Shown: positions 246 through 38,626, counted from the stretch's first letter. The stretch is 64,000 bases of DNA from an uncultured Gammaproteobacteria bacterium (GCA_964536205.1 CAZHVT010000001.1:69944-133943); one strand, 5' to 3'. The notes: generated by a model from the sequence alone, not told the origin. Translations and numbers: made by a program.

Positions 246-2258
246 TTAAAGCATGAGTCCGACAATGAGAAGTGCGACGATGTTGATGATTTTGATCATG
301 GGGTTGATTGCTGGGCCGGCTGTGTCTTTGTAGGGATCTCCGACGGTGTCTCCAGTTACTGCTGCTGCGTGAGCGAATGATCCTTTACCGCCGTGGTTTC
401 CCATTTCAATGTATTTTTTTGCGTTGTCCCATGCGCCTCCTCCTGTTGCCATTGAGAATGCGAGGAAGATTCCAGTTACGATTGATCCAACTAATACACC
501 TCCCAAAGCAACTGGGCCGAGTATTGTTCCTACGAGAATTGGAACAACAATAGGTAACATCGCAGGAACGATCATTTGCACGATTGCGCCTTTTGTTACG
601 ATATCAACTGCAGCTGCATAATCTGGTTTTGCTTTGCGTTCCATGATGCCTGGGATTGCTTTGAATTGTCGGCGAACTTCCTCAACTACTTTTGCAGCGA
701 CTTTTCCAACTGCTTCCATTGCGTATGCTGCGAAAAGATAGGGGATCATTCCACCGATGAACAATCCAATGATAACCATAGGATCACCAAGTTCAAATAC
801 TAATTCTTTTCCGTGAGCGACGAATTCTTCTGTGTAGGCTGCGAATAAAACGAGGGCTGCCAATCCTGCAGATGCGATTGCGTATCCTTTGGTGACTGCT
901 TTTGTGGTGTTTCCAACTGCGTCGAGTGCATCTGTGACTTCGCGAACTTCGCTGTCGAGTTCTGCCATTTCTGCGATTCCACCGGCGTTATCTGTGATTG
1001 GTCCGTATGCATCGATCGCTACAATAATTCCGGTGAGAGATAGCATGCTCATTGCTGCGATCGCTACTCCGTATAAACCTGCGACATTGAATGATGCGAG
1101 AATTCCGGCTGCAATGACGATGACAGGAAGCGCGGTTGATTTCATTCCAACTGCCAATCCTGAAATGACGTTAGTTCCATGTCCTGATTCTGACGCTTTT
1201 GCAATTTCTTTTACCGGTGCGTAATCAGTTGATGTGTAATATTCTGTGAGCCACACTACTAATGCGGTAACACCCAATCCGATAAGTGCTGCGTAGGTGA
1301 GGTTTGTTGCAGTTAATCCTGGTGCAACTTGTTCGCCTCCAAATAACCATTTTGTGATGGGTTGAAATGCTGCTGCTGAAAGTACACCAGCGGCGATTAA
1401 TCCTTTATATAGCGCTCCCATGATATTTTTCTTTGGGCCGAGTTTGATGAAGAATGTTCCCAAAATTGATCCGATGATTGCAACTGCTCCGATCATCAAT
1501 GGATAGATGACCAATCCTGGTGAGTTTGGATACAACAATCCACCGAGTAACATGGTTGCAACAGCAGTTACTGCATATGTTTCAAATAAGTCCGCTGCCA
1601 TTCCTGCGCAATCTCCTACGTTGTCTCCAACAAGGTCTGCGATAGCTGCGGGGTTTCGTGGGTCATCTTCTGGAATTCCTTTTTCAACTTTTCCGACGAG
1701 GTCTCCTCCGACGTCTGCGCCTTTGGTGAAAATTCCTCCACCTAATCGGGCGAACACAGAAATGAGTGATCCTCCGAATCCTAATCCGATGAGTGCTTGA
1801 GTGCTTCCATCAAATAACATGTAGACACCAGTCACACCGAGTAATCCTAATCCAACCACAAGCATTCCTGTTACGGCTCCACCTTTAACCGCAACATCCA
1901 TAGCTTTTTGCATAGATGATTTTGCAGCTTGTGCGGTTCGGAGATTTGCTTGCACACTGGTGAGCATGCCGAAAATTCCAGCGAGTCCGGAGAGGACTGC
2001 GCCGATGGCGAATCCTAATGCTGAATCAAGTGACAAAAATTGCCACAACAGAATGAAAACTACGAGCCCGATCGCTGCGATAGTTTTATATTGTCGAGTT
2101 AAGTACGCTCGTGCGCCGATTTGAATAGCGCGTGCGATCGCTTTCATGCGATCATCTCCTTGTGATTGCTTGAGAATCCATTTCATGGCGATGATGCCAT
2201 ATAAGATTCCCGCGGCTGCTGCCAATAAGGCAAGATTCTCGGGAGTGATATTACCCAT
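246..2258 (-). CDS. hppA: Membrane-bound proton/sodium-translocating pyrophosphatase (V-type H+-PPase)
   Basis: 670-aa polytopic membrane protein. Contains the H+-PPase signature [13 protein letters not shown] and the conserved DVGADLVGKVE and DNVGDCAG motifs. Confidence 0.9.
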
Positions 2259-2319
2259 ATCTATTAGAGGTTTTAATTATAGTGATCATAGTATGACCAT
2301 TTTTTGAGAAAACGTCAAT

Positions 2320-2458
2320 TGGATGTCGTAAGGTGTCGTAACGCGTAACTCGTAAAGCGTAACTCGGGCAATGAGTCGCCGAAGGTGACGATTTATAGAT
2401 TATCGCTTTACGATGCGTTGCCCGCTTTACGAATTACGCTTTACGAGTTACTATTATT
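2320..2458. repeat. Family-B long imperfect palindrome: arms built of taaagcgtaa/ttacgcttta units around a central gtcgccgaaggtgac mini-hairpin
   Basis: Related copies at 20578-20706 (central gtcgccgaaggcgac), 36518-36585 and 40862-40955 (gtcgccaaggcgac). Confidence 0.65.
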
Positions 2459-2461
2459 TGC

Positions 2462-3727
2462 ATGAAACGATTCGGATTAAACATCCTGCTGACACTGTTC
2501 CGCTGGCTTGTTTTGCTGAAACGCGCACTCATTCGCAGCGTCTTTTGGGTAGGTCGACATTTTCGACCTGCTTTTGTTTTTTTAGGGAAAATTTTGGTTT
2601 TGCCGGTGTATTCGATGGTGGTGAAAGTTTTGCGTCGATTTACACGAGCTCGAGTTACAAAGGTTTCTGTTCGCGAGATGTTAGGATTTGATCGTTTGCC
2701 GATGATTTTAGCTGTGGCGATGATTGGTGTTTTGTTTATTGGAGATTCTCGTGTGTTTGCTGGTGAGCCATCTCGTGGAGATGTTTTGTTGGTTGCGATG
2801 TTTCCGCAAAATACTCATGGTGAGCGTGTGATTGGTCAGTATGTTGATGATGAGGAGTTTGAGGAATTGGTTGCGCCATCTGCAGAAGAGCTTCCTTTTG
2901 GTGGTACTGTTGCCGGTGGTCGTGCGATTGTTGCTCCGTCTACGTTGCCGGGTGCGCCTGAAGAAGGTGAGCGACGTTCGACATCAAATTACGTGGTGAA
3001 ACCTGGAGATACGATTGGTGCGATTGCTGAGCGTTTTGGTGTGAGTGTTGAGACAGTGTTGTGGGAAAATGGTTTATCGTCTCGATCAAGAATTCGTCCG
3101 GGAGATATTTTGAAAATTTTGCCGACAACTGGTGTGAAGCATACAGTTAAAAAAGGTGATACGTTGAATAAGATTGCAAATAAATATGATGTTGAGATTG
3201 AGAAAGTTTTGTCGGTTAATCGTTTGGATGCGGAATCTAAAATTGCGATTGGTGAGTCTTTGTTGATTCCGGACGGTCGTCCGATTCGTCGTGCGGCTCC
3301 TGTTTCGCGTCGATCTTCATTTGCGGTGCGTGCTCCTGTTGCGGTTCCAAGTGCATCTGATAGTGGCACAGAATTATTATGGCCAACTTCCGGGCGTGTG
3401 ATTACACAGTATTATCATGGTCGACATTCTGGTTTGGATATTGATGGTCATTATGATTCACCTTTGTATGCATCTGAAGATGGTGTTGTGGTGACTGCGG
3501 GTTGGAATCGTGGTGGATATGGAAATTATATTATTATTGATCATGGAGGTGGTTTGAAGACGTTGTATGCGCATGCTTCGAAAATGTTTGTTGTGAAGGG
3601 GCAACGTGTTTCTCGTGGGGAGGTTATTGCGATGGTTGGTACGACAGGGCGATCGACAGGAACACATCTTCATTACGAAGTGCGTGTGGGGAATCGACGA
3701 ATGAACCCTCTCAGGTATACGCGTTGA
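2462..3727 (+). CDS. Peptidoglycan hydrolase with two LysM domains and a C-terminal M23 (LytM) metallopeptidase domain
   Basis: N-terminal TM/signal. Two LysM repeats (YVVKPGDTIGAIAERFGVSVETVLWENGL and HTVKKGDTLNKIANKYDVEIEKVL). M23 motifs HSGLDIDG and GTTGRSTGTHLHYEVRV. Confidence 0.8.
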   Translation: MKRFGLNILLTLFRWLVLLKRALIRSVFWVGRHFRPAFVFLGKILVLPVYSMVVKVLRRFTRARVTKVSVREMLGFDRLPMILAVAMIGVLFIGDSRVFAGEPSRGDVLLVAMFPQNTHGERVIGQYVDDEEFEELVAPSAEELPFGGTVAGGRAIVAPSTLPGAPEEGERRSTSNYVVKPGDTIGAIAERFGVSVETVLWENGLSSRSRIRPGDILKILPTTGVKHTVKKGDTLNKIANKYDVEIEKVLSVNRLDAESKIAIGESLLIPDGRPIRRAAPVSRRSSFAVRAPVAVPSASDSGTELLWPTSGRVITQYYHGRHSGLDIDGHYDSPLYASEDGVVVTAGWNRGGYGNYIIIDHGGGLKTLYAHASKMFVVKGQRVSRGEVIAMVGTTGRSTGTHLHYEVRVGNRRMNPLRYTR

Positions 3728-3899: not shown

Positions 3900-6077
3900 T
3901 TGCGCTGCATCATGCATATGCCTAAATCAGAACCCTCATTGCCAGCTCAAGATGAGTCTAAAAAAGATTTTTTAGGTTTGGATTCTGCGCATGTAGATGA
4001 AATGCCAGAACCTTCCGCGCTTGATGAAGTGATGGAATATGGAAAGCGAGAAGGCGATGCCTTGTCGCGTCGACATGAGAAAAAGCGTCTTGGTATTGAG
4101 GGTGAAACGCCGATGCTGGATGAAGTGATGGCAGATGCGCAGCGTGAGGGTGATGCGTTGTCAGATAATATTGAGTCAAATAATCGCGCAGCTGCTATTA
4201 AGCGCTTAATGAAGGTTGATCGGAATTTGTTACGAGAGTTGCGTGAGAGTGGTGAATTGGATGAAATGAGTTTGCATGAGATTAATCAGTTGGGCATTGA
4301 GACTGGATTAGAGAAAGATCGTCTCACAGGAGAACGTAATGAAGCAGCTGCGAGATATGCTGCGGCGCGAGATATGGGTTTTCATAAAACGCCAGATGAT
4401 AAGTATCGAGATCGTGGGGACATGGCTGAAGAAAAGTGGAGAGCGCTTGTTGATGTAATAAACCAATTGAATGGGCGTAAAATTGGATGGTTTTCGAAAA
4501 TTAAGTTTAATGGGAAGATTGGAGGTTTTGATGGTTCGATGAGAGGTTTAGAAATGAAAAATGAATTAAAAGCTGAAGCATATTTTGAAAAGAAGAATGA
4601 TGAAGAGGGTTTGTCTTTACTTGATGAGTACGATCGATTGTTGGGTGAGTTTCGAGCTCATTCTCATGATCTGACTTCAGGTGGTGAGGTTGATCGTATT
4701 GGTGTAGCTTCGGCAGAACAGTTTGATATTGGAAAGAATGAAGGAGCAGAAGCATATCGAGACGAAGCATTTGATGATGCTGCTTTTGATGCGGCGCCCG
4801 CAACTATTCCTGAAATGCCGGCTGTTATTGCGGAGGAAACGCCAACGGTTCGTGAAATGCCTTCTCTGGAGGGTGAGTTGAGTGATGCAGATATTGTTGA
4901 GGAGACACCTACTGTGCAAGAGATGCCTCGTGCTGAAACGCTGCCATATGTGCCAGTAGATGAAACTCCAACACTAGCAGATGTGGAGCCTGCGAATTCA
5001 AGATTTGAGACAGCTGAAGCTGAAATGGAATTTGCGACGTCTGAAACATTAGCCGCGGTTCCTACAGAAGCTGTGACTGAAAGAGATATGGAGGCTGCGA
5101 AATTGCCGAAAGCAACAGAGGAGTATGTTGATTACGCAGCGGTTGAGCGAGGTGCAAAAAAACGAGATAAAGAGGCGGGGGCACAGGCTGCGGAACGCGC
5201 TTATCAGAGTATTCGTAGAGAATCTCAATATCTGATTAATAGCATTCCGATGGATGAGGATGCGAAAAAAATGTTGATGAATGATACATATTTTGCTCAT
5301 CGTGTGCAGGATCATAAAGATGCTGCCGGAAATGTTGATCTTGCGAGTGTCGTTTCTGAATATCAGGATTATTTGGATGAGTGGTTTGATTTTCATGGTT
5401 TGCTTAATTCGCGAGGAAAATTACGAGGTAGTGCTGTGCGAAATGCAATAAAGGAAGGTATTAGTCGCGAGCGTATTGATGCGCAATATAAGTTGTTGGT
5501 ACAGATGGATGATTTGCTTGATTATGCGACAGGAAACTCTGTTTCAGTTGCGAATATGCCTGGTGCTTCTGGTGGGCGGCGTGTTGCGGCTGTGCAACGT
5601 AGAGCTGCTGAAGTTTCTCCTCCGCCTTTTGATCCTCCAACTGAAATTCCTGCTCGTGAAATTCCGCCACCACTTCCGGGTCAAAAAGAAACTGTTGAAT
5701 CAATGGAGGTTGCAGATGAGGATTTGCATGAGGTGCTTTCAACTGACGAGGTTATTGATTTGATTGATTCTTTGGCCGTTGGTGAGGAGAATAAAATAGC
5801 GTTGTATGATCGTAGATTTATGGATGCGGTTACAGATGCGAATGGTGACGTATTGTCAGCATCAGGTGCGGCGCTTGCTGAAGTTGAGGGTAATCTTGAG
5901 GCACTAGGAGTGAAGTTTTCAAAGGACGGTACTATCGATGGACGTTCAGCTCGAAAGTTTGCAGACACTGATGATTACAAATTGTACGCCGCTTTGAAAG
6001 AGCTGCAGCAGTCAATGTTGCATAGCCGTTCGCCTGGAAAAGCTGAAGAGATGAGAGGGCGATTTAACGCTGGATAG
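3900..6077 (+). CDS. Large acidic hypothetical protein with internal repeats (LDEVMEYGKREGDALS / LDEVMADAQREGDALS, and E-T-P-T-V-x-E-M-P repeats)
   Basis: 725-aa ORF rich in D/E with no TM segment. Followed by a rho-independent terminator near 6096-6122. No recognisable catalytic motif. The start could instead be one of the nearby downstream ATGs. Confidence 0.5.
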   Translation: MRCIMHMPKSEPSLPAQDESKKDFLGLDSAHVDEMPEPSALDEVMEYGKREGDALSRRHEKKRLGIEGETPMLDEVMADAQREGDALSDNIESNNRAAAIKRLMKVDRNLLRELRESGELDEMSLHEINQLGIETGLEKDRLTGERNEAAARYAAARDMGFHKTPDDKYRDRGDMAEEKWRALVDVINQLNGRKIGWFSKIKFNGKIGGFDGSMRGLEMKNELKAEAYFEKKNDEEGLSLLDEYDRLLGEFRAHSHDLTSGGEVDRIGVASAEQFDIGKNEGAEAYRDEAFDDAAFDAAPATIPEMPAVIAEETPTVREMPSLEGELSDADIVEETPTVQEMPRAETLPYVPVDETPTLADVEPANSRFETAEAEMEFATSETLAAVPTEAVTERDMEAAKLPKATEEYVDYAAVERGAKKRDKEAGAQAAERAYQSIRRESQYLINSIPMDEDAKKMLMNDTYFAHRVQDHKDAAGNVDLASVVSEYQDYLDEWFDFHGLLNSRGKLRGSAVRNAIKEGISRERIDAQYKLLVQMDDLLDYATGNSVSVANMPGASGGRRVAAVQRRAAEVSPPPFDPPTEIPAREIPPPLPGQKETVESMEVADEDLHEVLSTDEVIDLIDSLAVGEENKIALYDRRFMDAVTDANGDVLSASGAALAEVEGNLEALGVKFSKDGTIDGRSARKFADTDDYKLYAALKELQQSMLHSRSPGKAEEMRGRFNAG

Positions 6078-9077: not shown

Positions 9078-10790
9078 ATGGCATTTGGATTTGGAAAAAA
9101 GAAAGATGAGCCGATGATGACGGATTTAGAGGCTCAACAAAAAGCACTGGAGGAGAAGCGTAAATCTTTGGAAAAAAAAGCTGAATATAAAACTCCTGAG
9201 GAGCAGAGTTTGGGAAATCGGATGTTGAATGCAGTTATGATAAATCGTGGTTGGCGACAAGAGGTAAAACGGCAGGCTGCTGAAGATGAGCTGGATAAAG
9301 TTTCTAAGCAAGAGTCGCTTTTAAAGAAAAAACAGATGCGTAATGAGTTGTTTGAGGATTTGATTGAATTGGGTGGTCAGGCGAATGCAGGGGTTGAAGA
9401 AGCAAATCAGGAATTTCAAAATATTGTTGATAGTATTTCGACGCGGAATGAGGTTGAGGTTGATCAGGAGGCTGTAGCTGCTGCGCAACAGGAGGCAACT
9501 GAAGCATCTGCGGCTGCCACAGAGCAATTGGAAGCAGATTTACATGAGATTTTGGGGGATGAGGTTGAGAGTTATAAAGTTGATGTGATTGATGATGAAC
9601 CTGCGGATACGTATGAAGTTGATATGGAAGGCGAGGTTGGTGATTACACCCCAGAAGCTATTGCAGAGAAAACGGTTGAGGGTTTGAAGAATGCACATTC
9701 AATTAATGCGGTTATGGATGTCATTCGTAAGTATGATGGTATTACGAATGAGGCTGGCAAATATTATTCTGTTGCTGATGTTCAGGAAGCAATAGATAAA
9801 GCAAAAGACAATCCTTCTTTGGGGGATGGTCGATTTATTGATATTACGAGGGCTCATGGATTGCGTGAGAGAGTGAAGGCTGTGATTGATAATCCTGAAT
9901 CGCTTGAAGTTGATATGGGTGATGATGAGGCTGCTCCAGATTCTTTGGATATTGATATGGGTGAGGATGATGAAGTTGAGGCACCTGTGTTGTCCGCTGA
10001 TGAGGCGGCGTTGGCAGAAATTACTGCTGCTGCAGAAGAGGCATTTCCTGATGTGTCTGAAGAAGAAGATGCATTAGCATCGATTGCTGCGACTGCAGAG
10101 GCTGTATTTGGGGATGATGAGGTTGCGTCGGAAAAATCTCCTGAATCTTCTCTTGAAAAGAAAGACCATAAAGATGATTATTTATTATTTGATCGTGCGA
10201 GTGGATTGGTAGCAGTTGGGGAAGTTCCTCCGACAAGTATTAAGATTCCTGGGTGGCGTGCGAAAGTTGATTTTTCTGATAATAAGTCGTTGCGTAGTGC
10301 ACAAGATAATCAAGTGTTTGGAGATTTGGTTATTGATGAGTGGATGGAGACAAGAAAAAGTATAGCGAAAGAACAAGGTATTGATTTGGCTGATGCAAAA
10401 GTTGCGATTGGGGATCGAGCGGCTATGATGGAGCGTGTGAAAAATCGATTTTCAGAAGCGAAGTTGAAGTATCTTAATCGTGAGCGTCCAGAGCCTCAAC
10501 CTGAAGTTGTTGAGTTGGATAGTGAGTTGTTACAAGAATTACCTCCACCAGTTCCAGAATCTGCAAAAGCAATTGAATTGGATAGTGAGTTGCTGCAAGA
10601 ATTACCTCCGCCAGTTCCAGAATCAGTGCAAAATAAGCCTGCAGCTGAAGAAGAAACTGAAGTTGATTTGTTGCGTGAGCCTTCAGTTTCTATTGATCAG
10701 GCATCTTATGAGGTTGATGATGGTTCTGACGAGGAAGAGCCTCCAAAACCTCAAACTGGCGAAAAAGGGTCAACTGAACAAGCTGCATAG
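9078..10790 (+). CDS. Large acidic hypothetical protein with a duplicated ELDSELLQELPPPVPES segment
   Basis: 570 aa, very D/E-rich. Near-identical 17-aa repeat encoded at about 10507-10560 and 10573-10626. No TM segment. Confidence 0.5.
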   Translation: MAFGFGKKKDEPMMTDLEAQQKALEEKRKSLEKKAEYKTPEEQSLGNRMLNAVMINRGWRQEVKRQAAEDELDKVSKQESLLKKKQMRNELFEDLIELGGQANAGVEEANQEFQNIVDSISTRNEVEVDQEAVAAAQQEATEASAAATEQLEADLHEILGDEVESYKVDVIDDEPADTYEVDMEGEVGDYTPEAIAEKTVEGLKNAHSINAVMDVIRKYDGITNEAGKYYSVADVQEAIDKAKDNPSLGDGRFIDITRAHGLRERVKAVIDNPESLEVDMGDDEAAPDSLDIDMGEDDEVEAPVLSADEAALAEITAAAEEAFPDVSEEEDALASIAATAEAVFGDDEVASEKSPESSLEKKDHKDDYLLFDRASGLVAVGEVPPTSIKIPGWRAKVDFSDNKSLRSAQDNQVFGDLVIDEWMETRKSIAKEQGIDLADAKVAIGDRAAMMERVKNRFSEAKLKYLNRERPEPQPEVVELDSELLQELPPPVPESAKAIELDSELLQELPPPVPESVQNKPAAEEETEVDLLREPSVSIDQASYEVDDGSDEEEPPKPQTGEKGSTEQAA

Positions 10791-29992: not shown

Positions 29993-30171
29993 TGAGTTGA
30001 GCGACTTCCATTTTGGGTGATATATGCTCGCTTCACAAAACGTTTATTCGTCGTACGTTCAGTACGACTCACTGCACGTTTTGTTCCAGCAGTGCATATC
30101 TCATCCCAAACTGAAAGTCTTCACATCTGTGGAATAACTAATATATTATGTTAAGGAGGATGAAAGTATTA

Positions 30172-30588
30172 ATGGCGATGATTCCGATGATGTTCGGGTT
30201 GTTTGTGTTTGTACCGCAAGCGGTTGATGCGCAGGTTTTGTTTAAGATGCCTGATTGTGCGACCACGAAAGATGTGAAGAAGGCTGGAAATTGTCAGTTG
30301 AATGATGCAGTGAATACATTAATCGCAGTGGCTGAATTTATTTTTGGAATTTCTGGATCGTTGGCGTTGTTGATGTTTATGTATGGAGGATTTACATGGG
30401 TGACGTCTGGAGGACATGAACAGCGTATTTCAAAAGGAAAAGATATTGTCCGTAATGCTGTTGTTGGTTTGATCATTGTATTTATGTCTGCTGCTATTGT
30501 TCAGTTTGCATTAATATCGCTGGATGTTGATGGTAGTTTCAATTTCTTGAAAGGAAAAGATGGTGGAAAGGTTGAACAGCAAATATAG
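30172..30588 (+). CDS. TrbC/VirB2-type pilin-like protein, paralog 1 of 9
   Basis: Signal peptide, then C-terminal hydrophobic hairpin with LMFMYGGFTWVTSGGHEQ and a second TM. AAGGAGG RBS upstream. Confidence 0.65.
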   Translation: MAMIPMMFGLFVFVPQAVDAQVLFKMPDCATTKDVKKAGNCQLNDAVNTLIAVAEFIFGISGSLALLMFMYGGFTWVTSGGHEQRISKGKDIVRNAVVGLIIVFMSAAIVQFALISLDVDGSFNFLKGKDGGKVEQQI

Positions 30589-30606: not shown

Positions 30607-32091
30607 ATGATGCGAAGGCTTACTACGTATGCTGTTATGTTTGTTGGCCTTTTTTTGTTTTTTGGTGTTGCGGGTGTAAATGCAGCTCCACCGGCTTCGT
30701 ATTATGGGCCTATTAATGCGGCGGGGTGTAAGGCGGATTTAAAGGAGTGTTCTGATGATTTGTCAAGTAAATGTGGTTGGAAAGCACCGGATAATTATTA
30801 TATTGCAGAAAAAGCACTGAGCTCGAATATTTGCGATGATTGGAGTGCGACTGAATGGAAAACCATACACAACTTTTTTGGACCTTGTTATGATTGGCAT
30901 TGGTCGCAATCTACTACGTTTCCATTTGATTCTAGTAAATCTAAATATGGTCATTTAGCAGGAGGCGTAAATACTCCGAAGTGGAAATTTGCGCAGCCAA
31001 CAGATGCTCGACAAAAGCCCGGAGCCGGACCATGGTCAGAGAAGCAGGCGTGTGATCATTTTTTTGGGAACACAAATACAAAGTTTGCGTTATTTTCCGC
31101 GGGAATTACCAAGAATAATTGTGTATCGAAAGCAACGCAATGTAAGGAGTTGTATGAGAAATGCAATTTAACAGGAGGTAAGAATGATTTTAGTGATCCT
31201 CAAAAGTTATGTAATCAAGTGTTGTCAGATGATTCACAGGTTGGAGGTAAATTCACATTGTTTGATCAATGTGCAGATGGTTTGGCAAAGTTGGCTAAGC
31301 CAGTACCGGGAGATCCGTTTTGTAAGCAGGCAGAAAAATTATCTGAAGGTAAAAAGTGTCAGTGTTTGGGTGGTGTGATAGAGGCTAAGTATGGGAATCA
31401 TGGGTTGCAGCCCGGTGATGCGAGTTGTTGTCAGACATGTAAAACGGCAAAAATTAAATTTGATGATAAGGAAGTTTCATGTGCTACTGCTTTGAAAATA
31501 CCTACCTTGAAAGATAATTGTTCTTGTGAGGGTGTGGCTCAAACATATGCATTACAGAAAACTGGAAGTGAATTGAAAAAGCAATGTTGTGGGTTGTGTG
31601 CTTCTCGTGGTTTTGAGAAAAAAGTTTCAAAAGTGAAGTTTGGTTCTGGTGAGGTTGGTGTGTGTGGTGGGTATTCATGTGGTGATGGTAAAACACCGAA
31701 ATTAACTAATCCATCTGCAAATCCTGCGTTATTGAAAAAACAATTGTGTAAGGCATGTACATCAGAAGAAGTTGTTTTGAATGGTTCGAAAGAGAAGTGT
31801 GCTCGTGTTATTACGGTGAATCCTATTAAGGCGTATCCGGATCCACTGGCTGCTTCGGGGGTTAATAACCCGCAAAAGTTTATTGCGAATTTAATTAAAA
31901 CATTCTTGGGAATTATTGGATCGATTGCGTTGGCGCTTGTGGTGTATGGTGGATTTATTTGGATGACGTCTGCTGGTGAGACCGCACGTGTAGAAACAGG
32001 ACGCAAAACTGTTCAGTGGGCAGCATTTGGTCTTGTTGCTGTATTTAGTTCATATGTTATTGTTGCATTTATTTTTAAATCGTTGGGTTAA
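30607..32091 (+). CDS. Large cysteine-rich secreted protein (494 aa) fused to a C-terminal TrbC/VirB2-type pilin-like domain, paralog 2
   Basis: Signal peptide (MMRRLTTYAVMFVGLFLFFGVAGVNA), about 400-aa ectodomain with more than 30 Cys, and C-terminus FIANLIKTFLGIIGSIALALVVYGGFIWMTSAGETARVETGRKTVQWAAFGLVAVF. Confidence 0.65.
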   Translation: MMRRLTTYAVMFVGLFLFFGVAGVNAAPPASYYGPINAAGCKADLKECSDDLSSKCGWKAPDNYYIAEKALSSNICDDWSATEWKTIHNFFGPCYDWHWSQSTTFPFDSSKSKYGHLAGGVNTPKWKFAQPTDARQKPGAGPWSEKQACDHFFGNTNTKFALFSAGITKNNCVSKATQCKELYEKCNLTGGKNDFSDPQKLCNQVLSDDSQVGGKFTLFDQCADGLAKLAKPVPGDPFCKQAEKLSEGKKCQCLGGVIEAKYGNHGLQPGDASCCQTCKTAKIKFDDKEVSCATALKIPTLKDNCSCEGVAQTYALQKTGSELKKQCCGLCASRGFEKKVSKVKFGSGEVGVCGGYSCGDGKTPKLTNPSANPALLKKQLCKACTSEEVVLNGSKEKCARVITVNPIKAYPDPLAASGVNNPQKFIANLIKTFLGIIGSIALALVVYGGFIWMTSAGETARVETGRKTVQWAAFGLVAVFSSYVIVAFIFKSLG

Positions 32092-34291
32092 GTTTTTAGC
32101 TGCTTTCTCGATTGTGTATGCGGCGCTTTTTGGGTTGGTTGGGGGTGTTAGTGCTGATCCTGTGGTTGAGACTGATCCTAATACAACGGTAAAAGTTGAT
32201 TCTTGTTGCCTGTATTTTCAGTCTGTTCCAAGCTCAGCATGTTTTGCTACGAATTTGCCGTATACGTTAAATACTAAAGGCTATGTTAAGAGTGGAAAGC
32301 AGGCATTTCCCTGTAAACAGTCTGGTGACGATTTGGTTTTAGGTGTAGATGTTCCTGTTAATTTTGTGGGAGCATACCAAACATCTGATAAATCATGTTT
32401 AAGTACGATTTCGTATTCTTCAGACTTTGCTTCTTTGGATGATCAACAATATTTGTTGGAATTGTCTGGTGGCAAGAAAACAAACGATCTTGATGTAAAA
32501 ATTGAGATTAGTAGCTGGTGTGAAACTGGCATGAACCTTCATAATAAGAGCACGTATGTTCCGAATTTTTCAAAAGAGTTAAGTCAGGCTATTGTAAAAG
32601 CGAAGGAAGATGAGAAGGCTGCGGCTGATGCAAGCAAGCCTTGGGTTGTGTTGCAATCTCAGGAGGCTGCTTTTAATAAAGAGTTTAAGGGGTGTTGTAC
32701 GTATTACGAAGGTTCTGGTCCTTCTAATCAATGTGTCACAATTAAAGATTTATTAAAAAATGGTTCGAATGCAAAAAAGTTTGATTGTAAGACATATAAG
32801 GATAAGATGGTTAATTTTAATTTGCAGATAGTTCCTCATAATTTTTTAGGTGGATATCCAACAAAAGAAAATATCAAAGATGGCCCAAACTGTAACCCGT
32901 TTACAAATTCAGGAGCTACTTTGAATTATACTAAGTATGACACCCAGCAAAAAACTGATTTTTCTTTTAAAAAAGACATTGATACTTCAGAGTTTTGTGT
33001 GACTGCATTTGATGTGATGGGTCAGACAAAGTTGTTTGATTATTTTCAGGGTGAGGAGAAGAAGACTGAAGGAGTTTTGCCGGCAATGGAAAAGCTGGTG
33101 AAGGATTATTTTGATAGTAAGAAAAAGAAATTTTGTTGCATTCCTTCAAAGAAGTCTGCAGATACTGCGTGTCATGTGCCATTGTATAACGATGCTGATA
33201 TAAAGAAGTTGGCCGAAATGTTTGCGGGTACGAAAGCTTCTGATTCTAGTTTTGATGCGAAATCGGTTTTAGATATTTGGTGGAATGATACCGCAGGTGA
33301 TAAATATAAGGCTGGTACGGTTTTTGCATCGAACTTTTTTTCCTGCACTCCAAAAAATACCGTGATCAATACGGACACGGGCGCTGGTTTTAAACCGATT
33401 GATAAGAAGGTTTCTGTAACGGATTTTTGGATGCTCACGCAAGATTGTAAGTCTACTACCATACTCCCTGTTACAGATGCGTGGGGGAATGATGTGAAGC
33501 CGTGTAATGATGGTGATCAGAGTTGTTTGGATTCATATGCAAAAAAGTATCCGAGTGGGATGAGTGGTTTGACTGCGGCGAAGCGTTGCGCTGCTCCTAA
33601 TTTGTTTTGTCTTTGTAATAGTAAAGATTGTGTCGATACAATTTATCTTAGTAAGGTGAAGATAACTGGTGCAGAAAAGGATAGCAAGTCATGCGATGAG
33701 GCTGCAAAAACCGCGGAGCCATCTGAAGGTTGGAAGTGTAAAAAAACGACGCATGATAGCATTGTTGATCCAAGTAAGACTGCTGCGGATGGTACGAAAG
33801 GAGTTGAGTCTTGTTGTATGTTGTCGCCGGATAAAAAATGTAAAAATACCTTTACAACGAAGTTGGATAAGTTTGAGTGTGGGGATGGGAAAAAGGTCCC
33901 TATTGTTACGCCCGCTATTCAAGAACAGGTTTTGTTGAAACAGGTGTGTACTGCATGTCAGACAAAGACAGTGAAGCTGAAAGATGGAGAGAAGGATTGT
34001 ACTGTTGTTACAGAATTGCCAGATATTGGGGCATTCCCCAATCCTTTGGGGCAATCGGGGATTAATAATCCGCAATCGTTTATTGCGAATTTAATTAAAA
34101 CGTTTTTGGGGATTCTTGGTTCGATTGCGCTAGCATTGGTTGTGTATGGTGGATTTACATGGATGACATCTGCTGGCATACCTGAACGTGTGGAAGCTGG
34201 TCGCAAAACTGTTCAGTGGGCAGCGTTTGGTTTGGTGGCTGTGTTTGCTTCCTATACTTTGGTGAAATTTATTTTTGATGCGCTTGGATAA
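32054..34291 (+). CDS. Very large cysteine-rich secreted protein (about 745 aa) fused to a C-terminal TrbC/VirB2-type pilin-like domain, paralog 3
   Basis: C-terminal 90 aa nearly identical to paralog 2 (FIANLIKTFLGILGSIALALVVYGGFTWMTSAGIPERVEAGRKTVQWAAFGLVAVF). More than 40 Cys in the ectodomain. The start is uncertain (ATG at 32054, or an upstream TTG overlapping the paralog 2 stop). Confidence 0.6.
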   Translation: MLLLHLFLNRWVKFLAAFSIVYAALFGLVGGVSADPVVETDPNTTVKVDSCCLYFQSVPSSACFATNLPYTLNTKGYVKSGKQAFPCKQSGDDLVLGVDVPVNFVGAYQTSDKSCLSTISYSSDFASLDDQQYLLELSGGKKTNDLDVKIEISSWCETGMNLHNKSTYVPNFSKELSQAIVKAKEDEKAAADASKPWVVLQSQEAAFNKEFKGCCTYYEGSGPSNQCVTIKDLLKNGSNAKKFDCKTYKDKMVNFNLQIVPHNFLGGYPTKENIKDGPNCNPFTNSGATLNYTKYDTQQKTDFSFKKDIDTSEFCVTAFDVMGQTKLFDYFQGEEKKTEGVLPAMEKLVKDYFDSKKKKFCCIPSKKSADTACHVPLYNDADIKKLAEMFAGTKASDSSFDAKSVLDIWWNDTAGDKYKAGTVFASNFFSCTPKNTVINTDTGAGFKPIDKKVSVTDFWMLTQDCKSTTILPVTDAWGNDVKPCNDGDQSCLDSYAKKYPSGMSGLTAAKRCAAPNLFCLCNSKDCVDTIYLSKVKITGAEKDSKSCDEAAKTAEPSEGWKCKKTTHDSIVDPSKTAADGTKGVESCCMLSPDKKCKNTFTTKLDKFECGDGKKVPIVTPAIQEQVLLKQVCTACQTKTVKLKDGEKDCTVVTELPDIGAFPNPLGQSGINNPQSFIANLIKTFLGILGSIALALVVYGGFTWMTSAGIPERVEAGRKTVQWAAFGLVAVFASYTLVKFIFDALG

Positions 34292-34336: not shown

Positions 34337-34900
34337 ATGATTATGAGGAGAGTTTTACTATTTTTGCTTGTCGTGTTTTGCGTATTTGGTGTTTTTGAAT
34401 ATGTTGATGCTGCGACGCTTAAGGAATGTGAATCTGCTCAAGCTTTGTGTATCGATAATGCTGCTGCAAAATGTTTGGTTGATGTTGCGTGTATATCCAG
34501 TGAAACTGCTTTGTGTGGTGGGCAATTTTTAAAATGTAAGGAATCTGTTGAGGGAGCTTCATCTGAAGGTAGTTCTGGTGAGAGCGAAAAAGCATCTTCT
34601 GGTACGGATTTAGTTAATCCGTTAGGTGGAAAACCAGGATCAGCTGAATCTGCAAAGGGCATCACTAGTGTGCAGTCATTGGTTGGTAAAATTATTGCGA
34701 TTGCTTTGGGATTCTTGGGATCATTGGCCTTATTATTTTTCATTTATGGTGGATTTTTGTGGATGACTTCTCGTGGTAAACCTGAAATAATTACCAAAGG
34801 TACGAAGACGATGTTGTGGGCTGCGATTGGAATTTTCTTTGTCTTCTCAAGTTATTCGATATTGATTTTTATCTTGAATGCGATTGGGGCGAAGGTTTGA
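34337..34900 (+). CDS. TrbC/VirB2-type pilin-like protein, paralog 4
   Basis: Signal peptide, Cys-containing N-region, C-terminus LFFIYGGFLWMTSRGKPE plus a second TM. Confidence 0.65.
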   Translation: MIMRRVLLFLLVVFCVFGVFEYVDAATLKECESAQALCIDNAAAKCLVDVACISSETALCGGQFLKCKESVEGASSEGSSGESEKASSGTDLVNPLGGKPGSAESAKGITSVQSLVGKIIAIALGFLGSLALLFFIYGGFLWMTSRGKPEIITKGTKTMLWAAIGIFFVFSSYSILIFILNAIGAKV

Positions 34901-35077
34901 TGAATATTTGTGAGGGTTGATTTAGTCATTCTTCACAAGTAATTATTTACTTGATAACCCCGGCTTGTCGTTGGGATAATATCCTTTAAAAGGTCGAAGA
35001 CATGTGGAATCGTGTGCTGCAGCTTTCTGTACAGGTACACGACTATACATTCGGGTAGAAATTAAATTATAGACTTT

Positions 35078-35494: not shown

Positions 35495-35555
35495 CGGTGT
35501 TGGAACATATCATGTATAATAAGAGTAGTGTTAATCGCTACTCTTATTTGTTTAT

Positions 35556-36107
35556 ATGGTTTCAGTGACTTTTAGAAGAGATTATTTTATTGTCGGGTTG
35601 TCCCTGTTATTTTTGGGATTTTTGTTTGTTGCGCAGCCTGCGTATGCTGGGAAATGTGAGGATGTTTTGCAGACATGTAAGGAGAGCGCAACAGCTGGTT
35701 GTGCGGATAGTCCTGATTTAAATTGTGTTGAGAAAGCAGAGGCTGCGTGTACTGCTTCTTTGGATATATGTAAGCAAGCCGAAGCATCTGCTGCGCAAAA
35801 AGATACTGATGAAGGGTCGACGTCAAATGATTATGGGCTAAAAGAAACAGCTGATGCCGCTGACTTACCAAATACTGATACAAATGTTGCTGGTTTAGTT
35901 GGAAAAATTATTCAAGCTGCGTTATCATTAGTTGCGACAATATTCTTTTTCTTGATGGTATATGGTGGATTCTTGTGGATGACAGCTCGGGGAAATTCAG
36001 ATCAAATAGGAAAAGCGAAAGATTTAATTACACAGGCAATTGTTGGTGTGGTGGTTATTTCTGCGGCGTGGGCGATTACCAATTTTGTTATAAGTAGGAT
36101 AGGATAG
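35556..36107 (+). CDS. TrbC/VirB2-type pilin-like protein, paralog 6
   Basis: Signal peptide, Cys-rich N-region (six Cys), C-terminus FFFLMVYGGFLWMTARGNSDQ plus a second TM. Confidence 0.65.
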   Translation: MVSVTFRRDYFIVGLSLLFLGFLFVAQPAYAGKCEDVLQTCKESATAGCADSPDLNCVEKAEAACTASLDICKQAEASAAQKDTDEGSTSNDYGLKETADAADLPNTDTNVAGLVGKIIQAALSLVATIFFFLMVYGGFLWMTARGNSDQIGKAKDLITQAIVGVVVISAAWAITNFVISRIG

Positions 36108-36112
36108 TTTGT

Positions 36113-36517
36113 ATGATGAGAACAATAACGTTTTCTATTATTGCGAGTTTGTTTTTGGTGTTGCCTATGGCAGCGCAAGATAAGCCATCTCCTGTTGATA
36201 CTACTCCTGAAGCTGCGTCTGGGAAGTATGGATTGGATGCGACGGTTGGTGCTGCTGCACAAGAAGGAGTTCCTATTCCAAATACAGACAAAAAAGCAAC
36301 TGGAATTATTGGTAGTGTGCTTGGTGGAGTTTTATCAATGATTGGAACGATATATTTCTTTCTGATGTTATATGCTGGATTTACGTGGATGACTGCACGA
36401 GGTAAGAGTGAATTGATTGATAAATCTAAGAACATTATGATTCATGCAACGGTTGGTGCGGTGTTGGTTGCTGGGTCGTTTGTGATTGTGAAGTTTGTGA
36501 TTGATGCGCTGGGTTAG
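36113..36517 (+). CDS. TrbC/VirB2-type pilin-like protein, paralog 7
   Basis: Signal peptide. C-terminus YFFLMLYAGFTWMTARGKSEL plus a second TM. Confidence 0.65.
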   Translation: MMRTITFSIIASLFLVLPMAAQDKPSPVDTTPEAASGKYGLDATVGAAAQEGVPIPNTDKKATGIIGSVLGGVLSMIGTIYFFLMLYAGFTWMTARGKSELIDKSKNIMIHATVGAVLVAGSFVIVKFVIDALG

Positions 36518-36589: not shown

Positions 36590-36991
36590 ATGACATTATC
36601 GATAACCAAAAAACAGGTGGGAGCTTTTTTTGTGTGTTTGATGCTTTCGGGTATGCTTTTTGCGCCTCGGCTTACGCAGGCAAAGCTTGGTTTGGATGAG
36701 GCTAAGAATGCAGCAGATAAATCTGGTGGTTTTAATACGAATGAAGAGGAGGCTGGCGTTGCTGCTATTGCAGGAAAGATCATTCAAGCGCTTATTAGTT
36801 TGCTTGGAATTATATTTATTGGTTTGACGGTGTATGCAGGATTTTTGTGGATGACAGCTCGTGGAGAGACTGAACAGGTTGATCGATCTAAGAAAATGTT
36901 GACTCAAGGGGTGATTGGGATGGCGATTATGTTGGCTGCGTGGGCGATTACTAATTTTGTGTTAAGTCGGTTGATTGATGCAACCGGATAA
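36590..36991 (+). CDS. TrbC/VirB2-type pilin-like protein, paralog 8
   Basis: Signal peptide. C-terminus FIGLTVYAGFLWMTARGETEQ plus a second TM. Confidence 0.65.
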   Translation: MTLSITKKQVGAFFVCLMLSGMLFAPRLTQAKLGLDEAKNAADKSGGFNTNEEEAGVAAIAGKIIQALISLLGIIFIGLTVYAGFLWMTARGETEQVDRSKKMLTQGVIGMAIMLAAWAITNFVLSRLIDATG

Positions 36992-37521: not shown

Positions 37522-38214
37522 TTACCAACTGAACCGATCGAAACCGATTGATCGGTGTGGCCCGCGTGATCGCACGCGTCGTGGGCCGTACTTTTGGGTG
37601 GACTTACTAAGCACAGTGACCTGGCCGTTGTAAGCATTGATGGCATATTGCACCGCGTTAACGCGAATGCTGCCACCAAATCTTGTTGGCACCGTCCAGC
37701 ATGTTTCACCTGGCGGTAACAAACCCATTCCGTTGTACGTGGGGACTCCTCCAGGAAGGAGATGTCCTGTATCCACTTGTTCACCGATCACGACCAGCGA
37801 CTTCCCGTTGAGACGCAGTCCGATTGGACTACGCATTCCGTTTCTGATCGCAACCGTTTGAAACACGGGAACTCGTGACGGACGATCGAGAAAGCAAGGA
37901 AGTCTTTTCGCGGCAGCCGTTGTGACTCGCCGCGGCTGTTGCACGTTGCTGGTGCGAGGCGATGCCTTTCGTGAACGTTTGACTCGACGAGTCGTGCGCT
38001 TACGTTGGCGTGGTTTTTCCGGAGCTGCTTGTGGAGCAACTTGCGGAGCTGGCTTTGGACGATTTGCATCATCTGCCAGACGTCCGAAGTTTACCAACTC
38101 ATTTGCGAGCTGCCGATCGATCGTGCTGTTAGTTGCACGCTCTTGTTTTAGGTTGCCCTGGTTAGAGGCGCAACCCATTGTCATTGCTGTCAGAACAAAA
38201 ATGAACCGTTGCAT
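37522..38214 (-). CDS. Hypothetical lipoprotein with a basic, Pro-rich disordered linker. Encoded in a GC-rich island.
   Basis: Lipobox LTAMTMGCAS. Local GC about 58% versus about 43% flanking. No recognisable catalytic motif. Confidence 0.45.
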   Translation of the reverse strand: MQRFIFVLTAMTMGCASNQGNLKQERATNSTIDRQLANELVNFGRLADDANRPKPAPQVAPQAAPEKPRQRKRTTRRVKRSRKASPRTSNVQQPRRVTTAAAKRLPCFLDRPSRVPVFQTVAIRNGMRSPIGLRLNGKSLVVIGEQVDTGHLLPGGVPTYNGMGLLPPGETCWTVPTRFGGSIRVNAVQYAINAYNGQVTVLSKSTQKYGPRRVRSRGPHRSIGFDRFSW

Positions 38215-38224
38215 GGATTCTCCT

Positions 38225-38626
38225 CTAGTAGTTGTAGTAGCTTCCGTCGTTGAGCGTGTGAGGTGGTGGGGTGAATTGCCCCGCTCCCCATCCGTTCATT
38301 CCGACGTAGCCGCCGTATCCCAGGTTTGCTTGTTGAATGGCGAGTACGCAATCCGCATCGCCTTTGCGCAAACAATCGGCTAGAAGTTCTTGTCGCTGCA
38401 GCGCCGACATGGCGAAGATGCGACGAATTTCCAGATTTCCGAGTGCTCGCTCGCGACGCGTCTCTGCGTCAGTTGCGATTGCGTGAGCGCGCGCTGTTCG
38501 AATCGGTGACTCGAAAAAGCGACCCTCATACGAATAACCTTTCCCCTCCACTTTCGCGTGAGAGAAACAACCCATCCCGACGCCTGAAAGCGCGAGAATC
38601 AGAATCATTGAACTTACTCTGTACAT
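38225..38626 (-). CDS. Hypothetical lipoprotein (133 aa), GC-rich island
   Basis: Lipobox LALSGVGMGC. Same compositional anomaly as the neighbouring gene. Possibly co-transcribed with it. Confidence 0.45.
   Translation of the reverse strand: MYRVSSMILILALSGVGMGCFSHAKVEGKGYSYEGRFFESPIRTARAHAIATDAETRRERALGNLEIRRIFAMSALQRQELLADCLRKGDADCVLAIQQANLGYGGYVGMNGWGAGQFTPPPHTLNDGSYYNY

Follow-up and report, generated by a model that had tools for sequence, protein, structure and literature searches.

We analyzed a 64,000-nucleotide stretch of DNA (GCA_964536205.1, CAZHVT010000001.1:69944-133943; hereafter the window) that is deposited as coming from an uncultured Gammaproteobacteria bacterium. Its plus strand carries, between positions 30148 and 37430, nine consecutive same-strand genes for proteins with a C-terminal pilin domain (Pfam PF18895, T4SS_pilin; T4SS, type IV secretion system). 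Eight of the nine products reach the PF18895 gathering score of 26.6 bits; gene 7 stays below it. Genes 2 (30607-32091) and 3 (32054-34291), the subjects of this report, encode proteins of 494 and 745 residues, each with a Sec signal peptide, a Cys-rich ectodomain (approximately 390 residues in gene 2 and 630 in gene 3), and a C-terminal two-helix hairpin. A first-pass annotation of the window had described them as two adjacent fusions of Cys-rich ectodomains to pilin domains, and so they are: both open reading frames (ORFs) are present, and both C-termini pass PF18895, gene 2 only just (26.7 bits) and gene 3 with 30.2 bits. The source organism is an ultrasmall, uncultivated bacterium of the Candidate Phyla Radiation (CPR; Patescibacteria), since the closest GTDB genome is a marine metagenome-assembled genome (MAG) labelled "Parcubacteria group bacterium ARS125" (locus L009), and more distant pilin matches fall in Magasanikbacteria, Uhrbacteria, and Falkowbacteria.

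The ectodomains are marked by their Cys content. Cysteines make up 7.2% of the gene 2 ectodomain and 5.1% of that of gene 3, versus 0.79% in the 26 annotated ORFs of the window (P ~1e-18 and ~1e-16, respectively). They are confined to the ectodomains, and both totals are even. Gene 2 has 28, close to the 30 or so first counted, whereas gene 3 has 32 rather than the more than 40 reported initially. The head of gene 2 contains C-x6-C-x6/7-C motifs, one CQC, and two CCxxC modules, and its proximal Cys modules are weakly similar to residues 526-606 of gene 3. The head of gene 3 consists of three tandem repeats of 130-160 residues with the pattern CC-x10-C ... PxNFxGG ... C ... WC, followed by a region with 10 Cys. 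These repeats were missed by self-BLAST and were recognized through the Cys pattern and a repeat alignment of several orthologues. The features of the two genes and of the remainder of the array are collected in Table 1.

Table 1. Features of the pilin gene array, in window coordinates (aa, amino acids; AF2, AlphaFold2)
Feature	Position	Strand	Basis or remark
Sigma-70-like promoter candidate upstream of the array	30120..30149	+	Consensus scan 10/12; weak, as the region holds just as many such sites as shuffled sequence would give
Gene 1, short PF18895 pilin, 142 aa, candidate major subunit	30160..30588	+	Pfam E 7e-11
Gene 2, Sec-type signal peptide, aa 1-26, MMRRLTTYAVMFVGLFLFFGVAGVNA	30607..30684	+	Hydrophobic segment 4-30
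Gene 2, distal ectodomain, aa 27-296, hypervariable, C-x6-C-x6/7-C motifs	30685..31494	+	Predicted mostly helical (low-confidence AF2)
Gene 2, proximal Cys modules, aa 297-355, CSC and CCxxC motifs	31495..31671	+	Cys invariant in orthologue alignment
Gene 2, shared Cys linker/stalk, aa 356-415, CGDGK...C-x2-C...C...PDPL	31672..31851	+	BLASTP and tblastn versus gene 3
Gene 2, PF18895 pilin hairpin, aa 416-494, plus stop codon	31852..32091	+	Pfam; hydrophobic helices 425-455 and 468-494, basic loop
Gene 2/gene 3 overlap, 38 nt	32054..32091	+	Same 38-nt overlap in L008 and L009; JGI gene call agrees
Gene 3, signal peptide, aa 1-34, ...FGLVGGVSA	32054..32155	+	Hydrophobic segment 11-34; conserved in orthologues
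Gene 3, repeat R1, aa 47-209, CC-x10-C ... PxNFxGAY ... C ... WC, 6 Cys	32192..32680	+	Repeat alignment, four orthologues
Gene 3, repeat R2, aa 210-356, 6 Cys	32681..33121	+	Repeat alignment; L008 and L009 have one extra repeat ahead of R2
Gene 3, repeat R3, aa 357-485, divergent copy, 6 Cys	33122..33508	+	Repeat alignment
Gene 3, membrane-proximal Cys-rich region, aa 486-606, 10 Cys	33509..33871	+	Ectodomain part with the highest conservation across orthologues
Gene 3, shared Cys linker/stalk, aa 607-666	33872..34051	+	BLASTP and tblastn versus gene 2
Gene 3, PF18895 pilin hairpin, aa 667-745, plus stop codon	34052..34291	+	Pfam; hydrophobic helices 675-705 and 722-745
Gene 4, pilin, 187 aa, short Cys-rich N-domain (7 Cys)	34337..34900	+	Pfam PF18895
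Gene 5, short pilin, 138 aa	35078..35494	+	Pfam PF18895
Terminator-like hairpin 3' of gene 5	35518..35548	+	13-bp stem, T-rich tail; consensus match only
Gene 6, pilin, 183 aa, Cys-rich N-domain (6 Cys: C-x6-C-x7-C-x7-C-x8-C-x6-C)	35556..36107	+	Pfam PF18895
Genes 7-9, short pilins	36113-36517, 36590-36991, 36975/36978-37430	+	Pfam; gene 7 below threshold

Each protein starts with a Sec-type signal peptide that has an A-x-A-like cleavage site (VNA↓A and VSA↓D), and the mature ends are hydrophilic (APPASYYGP and DPVVETDP). For gene 3, the ORF itself opens at 32027 with TTG; the most plausible start is ATG 32054: translation from it gives a normal signal peptide (MLLLHLFLNRWVKFLAAFSIVYAALFGLVGGVSA), two relatives share it, and the JGI gene call agrees. 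The overlap of genes 2 and 3, first put at about 60 nt, measures 65 nt only with the TTG start and is shorter with the likely ATG (Table 1). Its conservation in L008 and L009 is compatible with the coupled expression that it was thought to hint at.

Gene 2 and gene 3 align by BLASTP over their last 139 residues only (61% identity, E 2e-52), and permissive BLAST settings stretch a weak similarity to approximately 220 residues from the C-terminus. Over the last 79 residues, which make up the pilin hairpin, identity is 81% for protein and 78% for DNA; the two proteins do share a pilin module, although the near-identity originally ascribed to it was overstated. The conserved Cys linker noted ahead of the hairpin is common to both proteins as C-x22-C-x2-C-x13-C, within a stretch of the form CGDGK...C-x2-C...C...P(D/N)PL. 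Beyond this shared part, the heads had been called unrelated to each other, a view that BLASTP and an hhalign comparison of the two ectodomain-family profiles uphold (E 0.4-1, no detectable homology). Between the two genes, synonymous divergence (dS) reaches 0.69 for the pilin module and 1.45 for the linker. Each type of ectodomain has orthologues elsewhere, in genomes where the solute-binding protein encoded nearby is 54-88% identical. These values point to an old duplication and contradict the recent one that the synonymous sites had been expected to confirm.

The relatives of the heads are few. Word-indexed searches were uninformative, returning the locus itself or one generic pilin of 160 residues. 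An exhaustive HMMER search with both ectodomains concatenated, against 1.84 billion representative proteins, gave five relatives: one 97%-identical fragment, one g3-type protein (758 residues, 34% identity), and three g2-type proteins (414-531 residues, 31-35%). All five end in a pilin module, and all five lie at a syntenic spot, 3' of genes for an NTP-transferase and a solute-binding protein and of the gene 1 orthologue. ARS125 (L009) and L090 were added from scans of GTDB genomes and metagenome contigs. Only about ten related sequences were found in the protein and contig collections searched, every one in a syntenic locus. PF18895 matches four of four g2-type and three of four g3-type proteins; the remaining g3-type protein lacks its C-terminus at a contig end. 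What follows gene 1 differs from locus to locus. The window carries g2 (494 residues) and g3 (745 residues); L008 has g2 and a g3 of 946 residues with four repeats and a poly-Asp run; L009 has a divergent g2 and a g3 of at least 760 residues, also with four repeats; L005/L010 have g3 only (758 residues); L006 and L007 have g2 only; and L090 has a short, L009-like g2 of 335 residues. In the g3-type orthologues at L008:11208-14045 and L009:10380-12659, the four repeats are of the CC type, in place of three, and L008 has 13 consecutive Asp between repeats 1 and 2.

That the Cys-rich domains resemble no familiar family was noted at first sight, and the searches bear it out. The ectodomains match only the pilin domain in Pfam (E up to 1, all family members), apart from single-member chance matches, give no further match in NCBIfam, and find nothing among PDB sequences with family profiles. 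The heads appear to be new disulfide-rich folds, and the 130-160-residue repeat of gene 3 (CC-x10-C ... NFxGG ... WC) is without a relative in Pfam or the PDB. For the pilin module, three profile comparisons offer leads. The gathering score of PF04956 (TrbC/VirB2; 27.9 bits) is not reached by gene 2 (18 bits, E 0.0033), gene 3 gives no match, and the other paralogues score 13-19 bits; the subthreshold matches of array proteins cover model positions 20-97 of 98 (E 0.001-0.08), a lead for distant homology. NF045849, a pilin-like protein of a Mycoplasma integrative and conjugative element (ICE), is matched below threshold by genes 2-6 over positions 7-79/80, with 21-34 bits against a 40-bit cut-off (E 1e-8 to 2e-4). 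An hhalign comparison with a VirB2 sequence gives E 3e-4, likewise a lead only. No solved pilin was retrieved from the PDB by sequence: the untrimmed pilin alignment returned nothing, and the pilin-domain profile returned only designed "Pizza" repeat proteins, which we rejected as spurious (~4 bits per stretch).

The size of the heads was compared with that of other N-terminal parts in 464 distinct proteins from the fetched loci whose pilin domain is C-terminal, a sample biased to relatives. The part ahead of the pilin domain has a median length of 59 residues, with the 95th percentile at 233 and the 99th at 406. Gene 2 has 415 residues there and gene 3 has 666; most of the extended members of the set are Cys-rich, and genes 2 and 3 are the extreme of a length continuum. 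The gene 2 head starts with a C-x6-C-x7-C motif that is also found at the start of the short Cys-rich N-domains of genes 4 and 6. In these two genes and in their orthologues (L005:4741-5730, L006:4317-5354, and L007:5746-6264), the N-domain has the pattern C-x6-C-x7-C-x6/7-C-x8-C-x6-C, and Gly/Ala/Asp-rich low-complexity linkers come after it. Because gene 2 begins with the same motif, the sequences suggest that the giant heads grew out of a small Cys-rich element of the gene 4/6 type.

The reverse architecture also occurs in the sample. In Uhrbacteria and other Patescibacteria, PF18895 lies at approximately residues 45-120 and is followed by 600-3300 Cys-rich residues. We counted 36 distinct proteins of this kind, of 600-3388 residues and with up to 164 Cys, in 25 loci (among them L086:9848-20011, L050, L044, L042, L073, L056, L052, L080, L051, L150, L078, and L043). 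The Uhrbacteria protein at L086 9848-20011 (3388 residues) combines a pilin domain at residues 45-115 with Big_5, TIG/IPT, VWA, and DUF4215 domains, of the kind from which adhesins are typically built.

Comparison with relatives shows that the heads and the pilin module have evolved separately. Against ARS125, the NTP-transferase (91% amino acid identity), the solute-binding protein (88%), and gene 1 (85-90%) have nonsynonymous divergences (dN) of 0.06-0.08 and dS of 0.64-1.25, and the gene 2 pilin module gives 87% identity, dN 0.06, and dS 0.53. The heads of genes 2 and 3 are approximately 26% and 30% identical, with dN of 0.88 and 0.82. In DNA, similarity between the window and ARS125 ends at 30668, inside the gene 2 signal peptide, is back at 31812-32142 (gene 2 stalk and pilin, gene 3 signal peptide), is lost again, and continues from 33869, in the gene 3 linker, at ~86% identity. 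Cysteines are retained in 96% (g2) and 85% (g3) of orthologue comparisons, versus 27-28% for other residues. The heads change at about the neutral rate or faster, and the Cys scaffold is kept. Synonymous divergence at identical residues is 0.61-0.72 in the heads and 0.32-0.52 in the flanks, which hints at older alleles in the heads; we do not rely on this difference, as alignment error could produce it.

Head type and repeat number also vary among relatives. BLASTP finds no counterpart of the distal 270 residues of gene 2 in the ARS125 protein at the same array position, and a recognizable g2-type head is kept in more distant genomes, whose solute-binding proteins are 54-79% identical. A clean replacement of the ARS125 head by a nonhomologous one was considered and softened, because MAFFT and BLAST show shared Cys motifs and a homologous proximal half; we read the ARS125 gene 2 head as a mosaic or hyperdivergent form in which the distal part alone cannot be aligned. 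L090 carries an ARS125-like g2 head and its sister genome L007 the window-like one, a pattern indicative of either exchange or the differential loss of old paralogues. Repeat number ranges from 3 to 4 among g3-type orthologues. The pilin core behaves differently. In a quartet of genes 2 and 3 from the window and from L008, 18 informative DNA sites of the core group by genome, 4 by ectodomain type, and 0 in the third arrangement. Only seven informative sites alter an amino acid, and most are synonymous. Because the cores cluster by genome, mostly at synonymous sites, the pattern indicates gene conversion between the pilin cores of the adjacent paralogues. The linker gives no resolution (13/14/11 sites), and the last 17 codons lean to type (1/3/0). 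Across orthologues, these last ~17 codons of g2-type genes (SSYVIVAFIF...; window 32037-32091) show unusual conservation, and the gene-conversion signal does not extend to them. The final 38 nt of gene 2 (32054-32091) double, in a second reading frame, as the start of gene 3 (MLLLHLFLNRWVK), and a dual-coding constraint is a possible cause of the conservation.

Structure prediction separates the confident module from the uncertain head. AF2 models the linker-plus-pilin module, from a 14-sequence alignment, as a helical hairpin with a predicted local distance difference test score (pLDDT) of 87-92, preceded by a small alpha/beta Cys-linked domain (pLDDT ~75). Fold searches with this model return generic helical hairpins and do not discriminate for pilin membership. 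The full-length gene 2 model, from a 4-sequence alignment, has a pLDDT of 53 and a predicted template modeling score (pTM) of 0.29 and was used for secondary-structure tendencies only; Foldseek with this low-confidence model gave a best E of 3.3. The hairpin loop of gene 2, ETARVETGRKT, is basic. From the positive-inside rule and the likeness to VirB2 and TraA, we infer that both hairpin ends face outward and that the N-terminal domain is extracellular.

Our analysis favors, as probable though well short of certain, the reading that genes 2 and 3 encode modular VirB2-type (PF18895) pilins with adhesin-like heads, in which the disulfides, the surface display, the incorporation into a pilus, and the adhesin role are all inferred. 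Directly observed are the domain layout, the topology signals, the Cys conservation, the lack of known relatives for the heads, the evolutionary rates, the concerted evolution of the cores, and the synteny. A cleavable Sec signal peptide would export the N-terminus. The C-terminal hairpin (helix, short basic loop, helix) would enter the membrane in the topology of VirB2, TrbC, and TraA, its two ends outside, and the ectodomains of 390 and 630 residues would consequently be displayed outside the cell, held together by up to 14 (gene 2) and 16 (gene 3) disulfides. The proteins would be co-expressed with the short pilins of an operon-like array. Gene 1 is likely the major subunit, because it stands first in the array, has a strong Shine-Dalgarno sequence (AAGGAGG upstream of ATG 30160, in an ORF that opens at 30148), and shows a dN/dS of 0.10 against its ARS125 orthologue. 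The headed proteins, because their heads are bulky, would be low-copy subunits, tip-located or decorating, of a T4SS-type pilus or, failing that, hairpin-anchored surface proteins, and each head would serve as an adhesin-like recognition domain for a host cell or a ligand. Heads gain and lose repeats, whole genes come and go between related genomes, and gene conversion, probably joined by selection for co-assembly, keeps the pilin cores of genes 2 and 3 similar.

Several points weigh against this reading. No pilus has yet been demonstrated for any VirB2-like (PF18895) protein of Patescibacteria (PMC12857230). T4SS ATPase and channel genes were found neither among the ORFs of the 64-kb window scanned with Pfam and NCBIfam nor in the next 10 kb upstream, where a CotH-family protein, trigger factor, and PolA are encoded; approximately 40% of Patescibacteria pilin genes lie away from virB4 (PMC12102498). 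An N-terminal head of 40-70 kDa may be incompatible with VirB2-type helical packing except at the tip. The cysteines, several of which form CxxC pairs, could bind metal instead of forming disulfides, and the high dN of the ectodomains could stem from relaxed constraint and not from diversifying selection. "Adhesin" is used here by analogy only, because the ectodomain model is unreliable and matches nothing.

Some of the same observations would suit proteins that never enter a filament. PF18895 would then be a two-helix membrane anchor, and genes 2 and 3 would encode hairpin-anchored adhesins or receptors on a monoderm CPR cell. The hydrophobicity of the hairpin is ordinary and transmembrane-like, T4SS machinery was not found in the window or in the next 10 kb upstream, and the heads are large; PF18895 also stands at the N-terminus of adhesin-like proteins of 600-3388 residues, which are hard to picture in a pilus. 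However, the genes lie in a conserved array with seven short pilins, and the hairpin core is homogenized between genes 2 and 3 and at least 76% identical to orthologues, where a generic anchor would drift more. The pilin arrays of Saccharibacteria, moreover, are essential together with the T4SS (PMC10633639). We regard simple anchoring as rather unlikely. The heads might also be secreted or tethered enzymes or toxins, such as cell-wall hydrolases directed at a host, instead of binding domains. CPR epibionts must breach host envelopes, and the g2 and g3 heads are free of annotation that would speak otherwise. Against this, the heads show no similarity to Pfam, NCBIfam, or PDB sequences even by family profiles, very few of their residues besides Cys are invariant, and a catalytic domain would not be expected to reach a dN of ~0.85 to the closest relative. 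We give an enzymatic head little credence.

The remaining alternatives concern the origin of the arrangement. Two similar modules of 240 nt, 2.2 kb apart, could mislead an assembler, and a collapsed or chimeric assembly, or a wrong gene call, could then create two apparent pilin fusions; a collapsed repeat had been named from the outset as a possible source of the C-terminal identity. This explanation is refuted and retains virtually no weight. The modules are 76-78% identical in DNA and share no identical run longer than 24 nt, the same sequence recurs at 99.98-100% identity in three JGI assemblies and one ENA assembly, and two of these are short contigs across the gene 2/gene 3 junction. Full-length orthologues are present in five other loci. 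A constant module with variable heads, a gene-conversion signature in the pilin core, and a head type out of step with genome relatedness (L090 is L009-like, its sister L007 window-like) would also be expected if programmed antigenic or phase variation, akin to Neisseria pilE/pilS or a diversity-generating retroelement, swapped ectodomains onto a constant pilin. Yet within the 64 kb, tblastn with both ectodomains hits nothing beyond genes 2 and 3 and their common linker, so that silent or partial copies are absent there, and the direct repeats are the pilin modules alone. No reverse transcriptase occurs among ORFs of at least 300 residues, and the sole recombinase there is a Xer-type integrase 21 kb away. 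The four assemblies come from different samples and are identical, which speaks against switching at the population level, and each ectodomain type is kept as an orthologue across genomes. Because silent copies were not found in the 64 kb, nor a reverse transcriptase among its ORFs of at least 300 residues, and the assemblies are identical, we judge programmed switching very improbable. The cassette system proposed in the first-pass annotation therefore survives in part: module and heads have evolved separately, and head type, repeats, and genes vary, but a dedicated switching device is not seen in the 64 kb. As birth-and-death evolution plus gene conversion, the idea is partly supported.

The preferred reading, modular VirB2-type pilins, fits a known setting. 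Patescibacteria commonly carry 2-11 VirB2-like pilin genes in an array (Quinonero-Coronel et al. 2025, PMC12102498), and in Southlakia epibionticum the pilin array and the T4SS are essential for epibiotic growth, with a pilus suspected (Wang et al. 2023, PMC10633639; PMC12857230). The window array resembles these (PMC12102498; PMC10633639) in its nine tandem chromosomal genes, its PF18895 domains, its low mutual identity (20-50%) between most members, and its occurrence in a CPR bacterium. It differs in that two members carry Cys-rich heads of 390 and 630 residues where the typical N-terminal part has 59 (n = 464), in that the pilin domains of genes 2 and 3 are 81% identical versus a reported maximum of 54%, and in that virB4 was not found in the 64 kb. 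PF18895 arrays in Patescibacteria are thus known, and the giant Cys-rich head fusions appear to be new; the searchable papers on these arrays make no mention of such fusions. With VirB2, TrbC, and TraA (PF04956), the window proteins have in common a signal peptide, two hydrophobic helices, a short basic loop, and weak hidden Markov model similarity over most of the model, although none attains the gathering score. Classical conjugative pilins are approximately 70-120 residues long when mature and have no large head, and adhesion is left to a separate protein (VirB5, or TraN/OmpA contacts). The Mycoplasma ICE pilin-like protein Mbov_0395/MMCAP2_0565 (NF045849) is matched across its model by genes 2-6, below threshold, but is only ~80 residues long and has no ectodomain; these matches fit the monoderm (MPF-FATA-like) ancestry proposed for the CPR T4SS.

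The closest parallel in design lies outside this superfamily. The modular type IV pilins PilB and PilC of Streptococcus sanguinis (PMC8179133, PMC9934059) likewise join a pilin module to a functional or adhesive module in a minor subunit beside short major pilins, a design that accounts for the acquisition of specific binding by a simple filament. Their pilin superfamily is unrelated: the signal peptide is of class III and is processed by a prepilin peptidase, an alpha-1 helix stands at the N-terminus, and the graft is C-terminal, whereas genes 2 and 3 have a Sec-type signal peptide that is not of class III, a C-terminal pilin module, and an N-terminal graft. The tandem variable VirB2 paralogues of Bartonella and Anaplasma, and pilE/pilS of Neisseria, share gene conversion between copies with the window genes. 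In those organisms, variation lies inside a small pilin or comes from silent cassettes; in genes 2 and 3, by contrast, the pilin core is homogenized, the fused head varies, and silent cassettes were not found in the 64 kb. The giant pilin-domain proteins of Uhrbacteria, such as that of L086, also fuse PF18895 to a very large Cys-rich extracellular region, but their orientation is reversed, and Big_5, TIG, VWA, and DUF4215 domains can be recognized in them, in contrast to the gene 2 and gene 3 heads, for which no match was found.

Arrays of VirB2-like pilins are characteristic of Patescibacteria, and the only species with genetics cannot grow on its host without its array. Large, fast-evolving heads with a conserved Cys scaffold are a concrete, testable candidate for the partner-cell recognition element of a monoderm T4SS, and head type, which can be compared with host range, provides an evolutionary handle. 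The principle of the modular pilin would be carried from type 4 pili to the unrelated T4SS pilin superfamily. PrgB-type adhesins have not been detected in the phylum Patescibacteria (PMC12102498). A bolder proposal, which we put forward tentatively and consider doubtful, is that CPR bacteria build a VirB2-like pilus with hypervariable, disulfide-knotted recognition heads fused to its pilin subunits, that heads are exchanged, lost, and re-expanded between relatives while gene conversion keeps the cores filament-compatible, and that the array is a host-range determinant replacing a separate VirB5- or PrgB-type adhesin. If true, these would be the first "modular T4SS pilins".

Orthologues of gene 4 range from 158 to 345 residues, and the one of 158 residues lacks the Cys-rich N-domain. 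Gene 5 lies between a promoter-like site at 34951-34980, which has an extended -10 TG, and the best terminator-like hairpin of the region (Table 1). Given these signals on either side of gene 5, transcription of the array may proceed in three or more units, namely genes 1-4, gene 5, and genes 6-9. Immediately 3' of the array, at 37522-38626, lie two minus-strand ORFs of 230 and 133 residues without a family match and with a slightly raised G+C content (0.45-0.46 versus ~0.41); the 230-residue product has a lipoprotein-like N-terminus (LTAMTMGC) and an Arg/Pro-rich middle. The neighborhood is otherwise one of housekeeping genes, namely recA, ftsK, and rpoB and rpoC, together with those for RNase HII, CorA, the NTP-transferase, the solute-binding protein, and MgtE. 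Rfam identifies only two tRNAs, both distant from the array, and tblastn against a plasmid collection gave no match. Two large ORFs elsewhere in the window, at 3900-6077 (725 residues) and 9078-10790 (570 residues), match neither Pfam nor NCBIfam; the first adjoins a LysM/Peptidase_M23 protein.

The same organism is present in an ENA sample as a 211-kb scaffold (L169/L170: record Ga0118721_1000030 79276-101288; ERZ23499038 scaffold_16). Many MAGs with CPR-type pilin arrays (L010-L017 and others) bear the title "uncultured Gammaproteobacteria bacterium" (binchicken/SRP co-assemblies), and single ones are titled Methylomirabilis, Binatia, or Nanoarchaeia; these titles look like placeholder labels or mislabelling. 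Over the window (1-64000), GC skew is strongly positive (0.2-0.39) at plus-strand genes and approximately 0 at minus-strand genes (20-24, 50-54, and 60-62 kb). The skew thus follows the coding strand, and its cumulative curve climbs through the whole window without a turning point.

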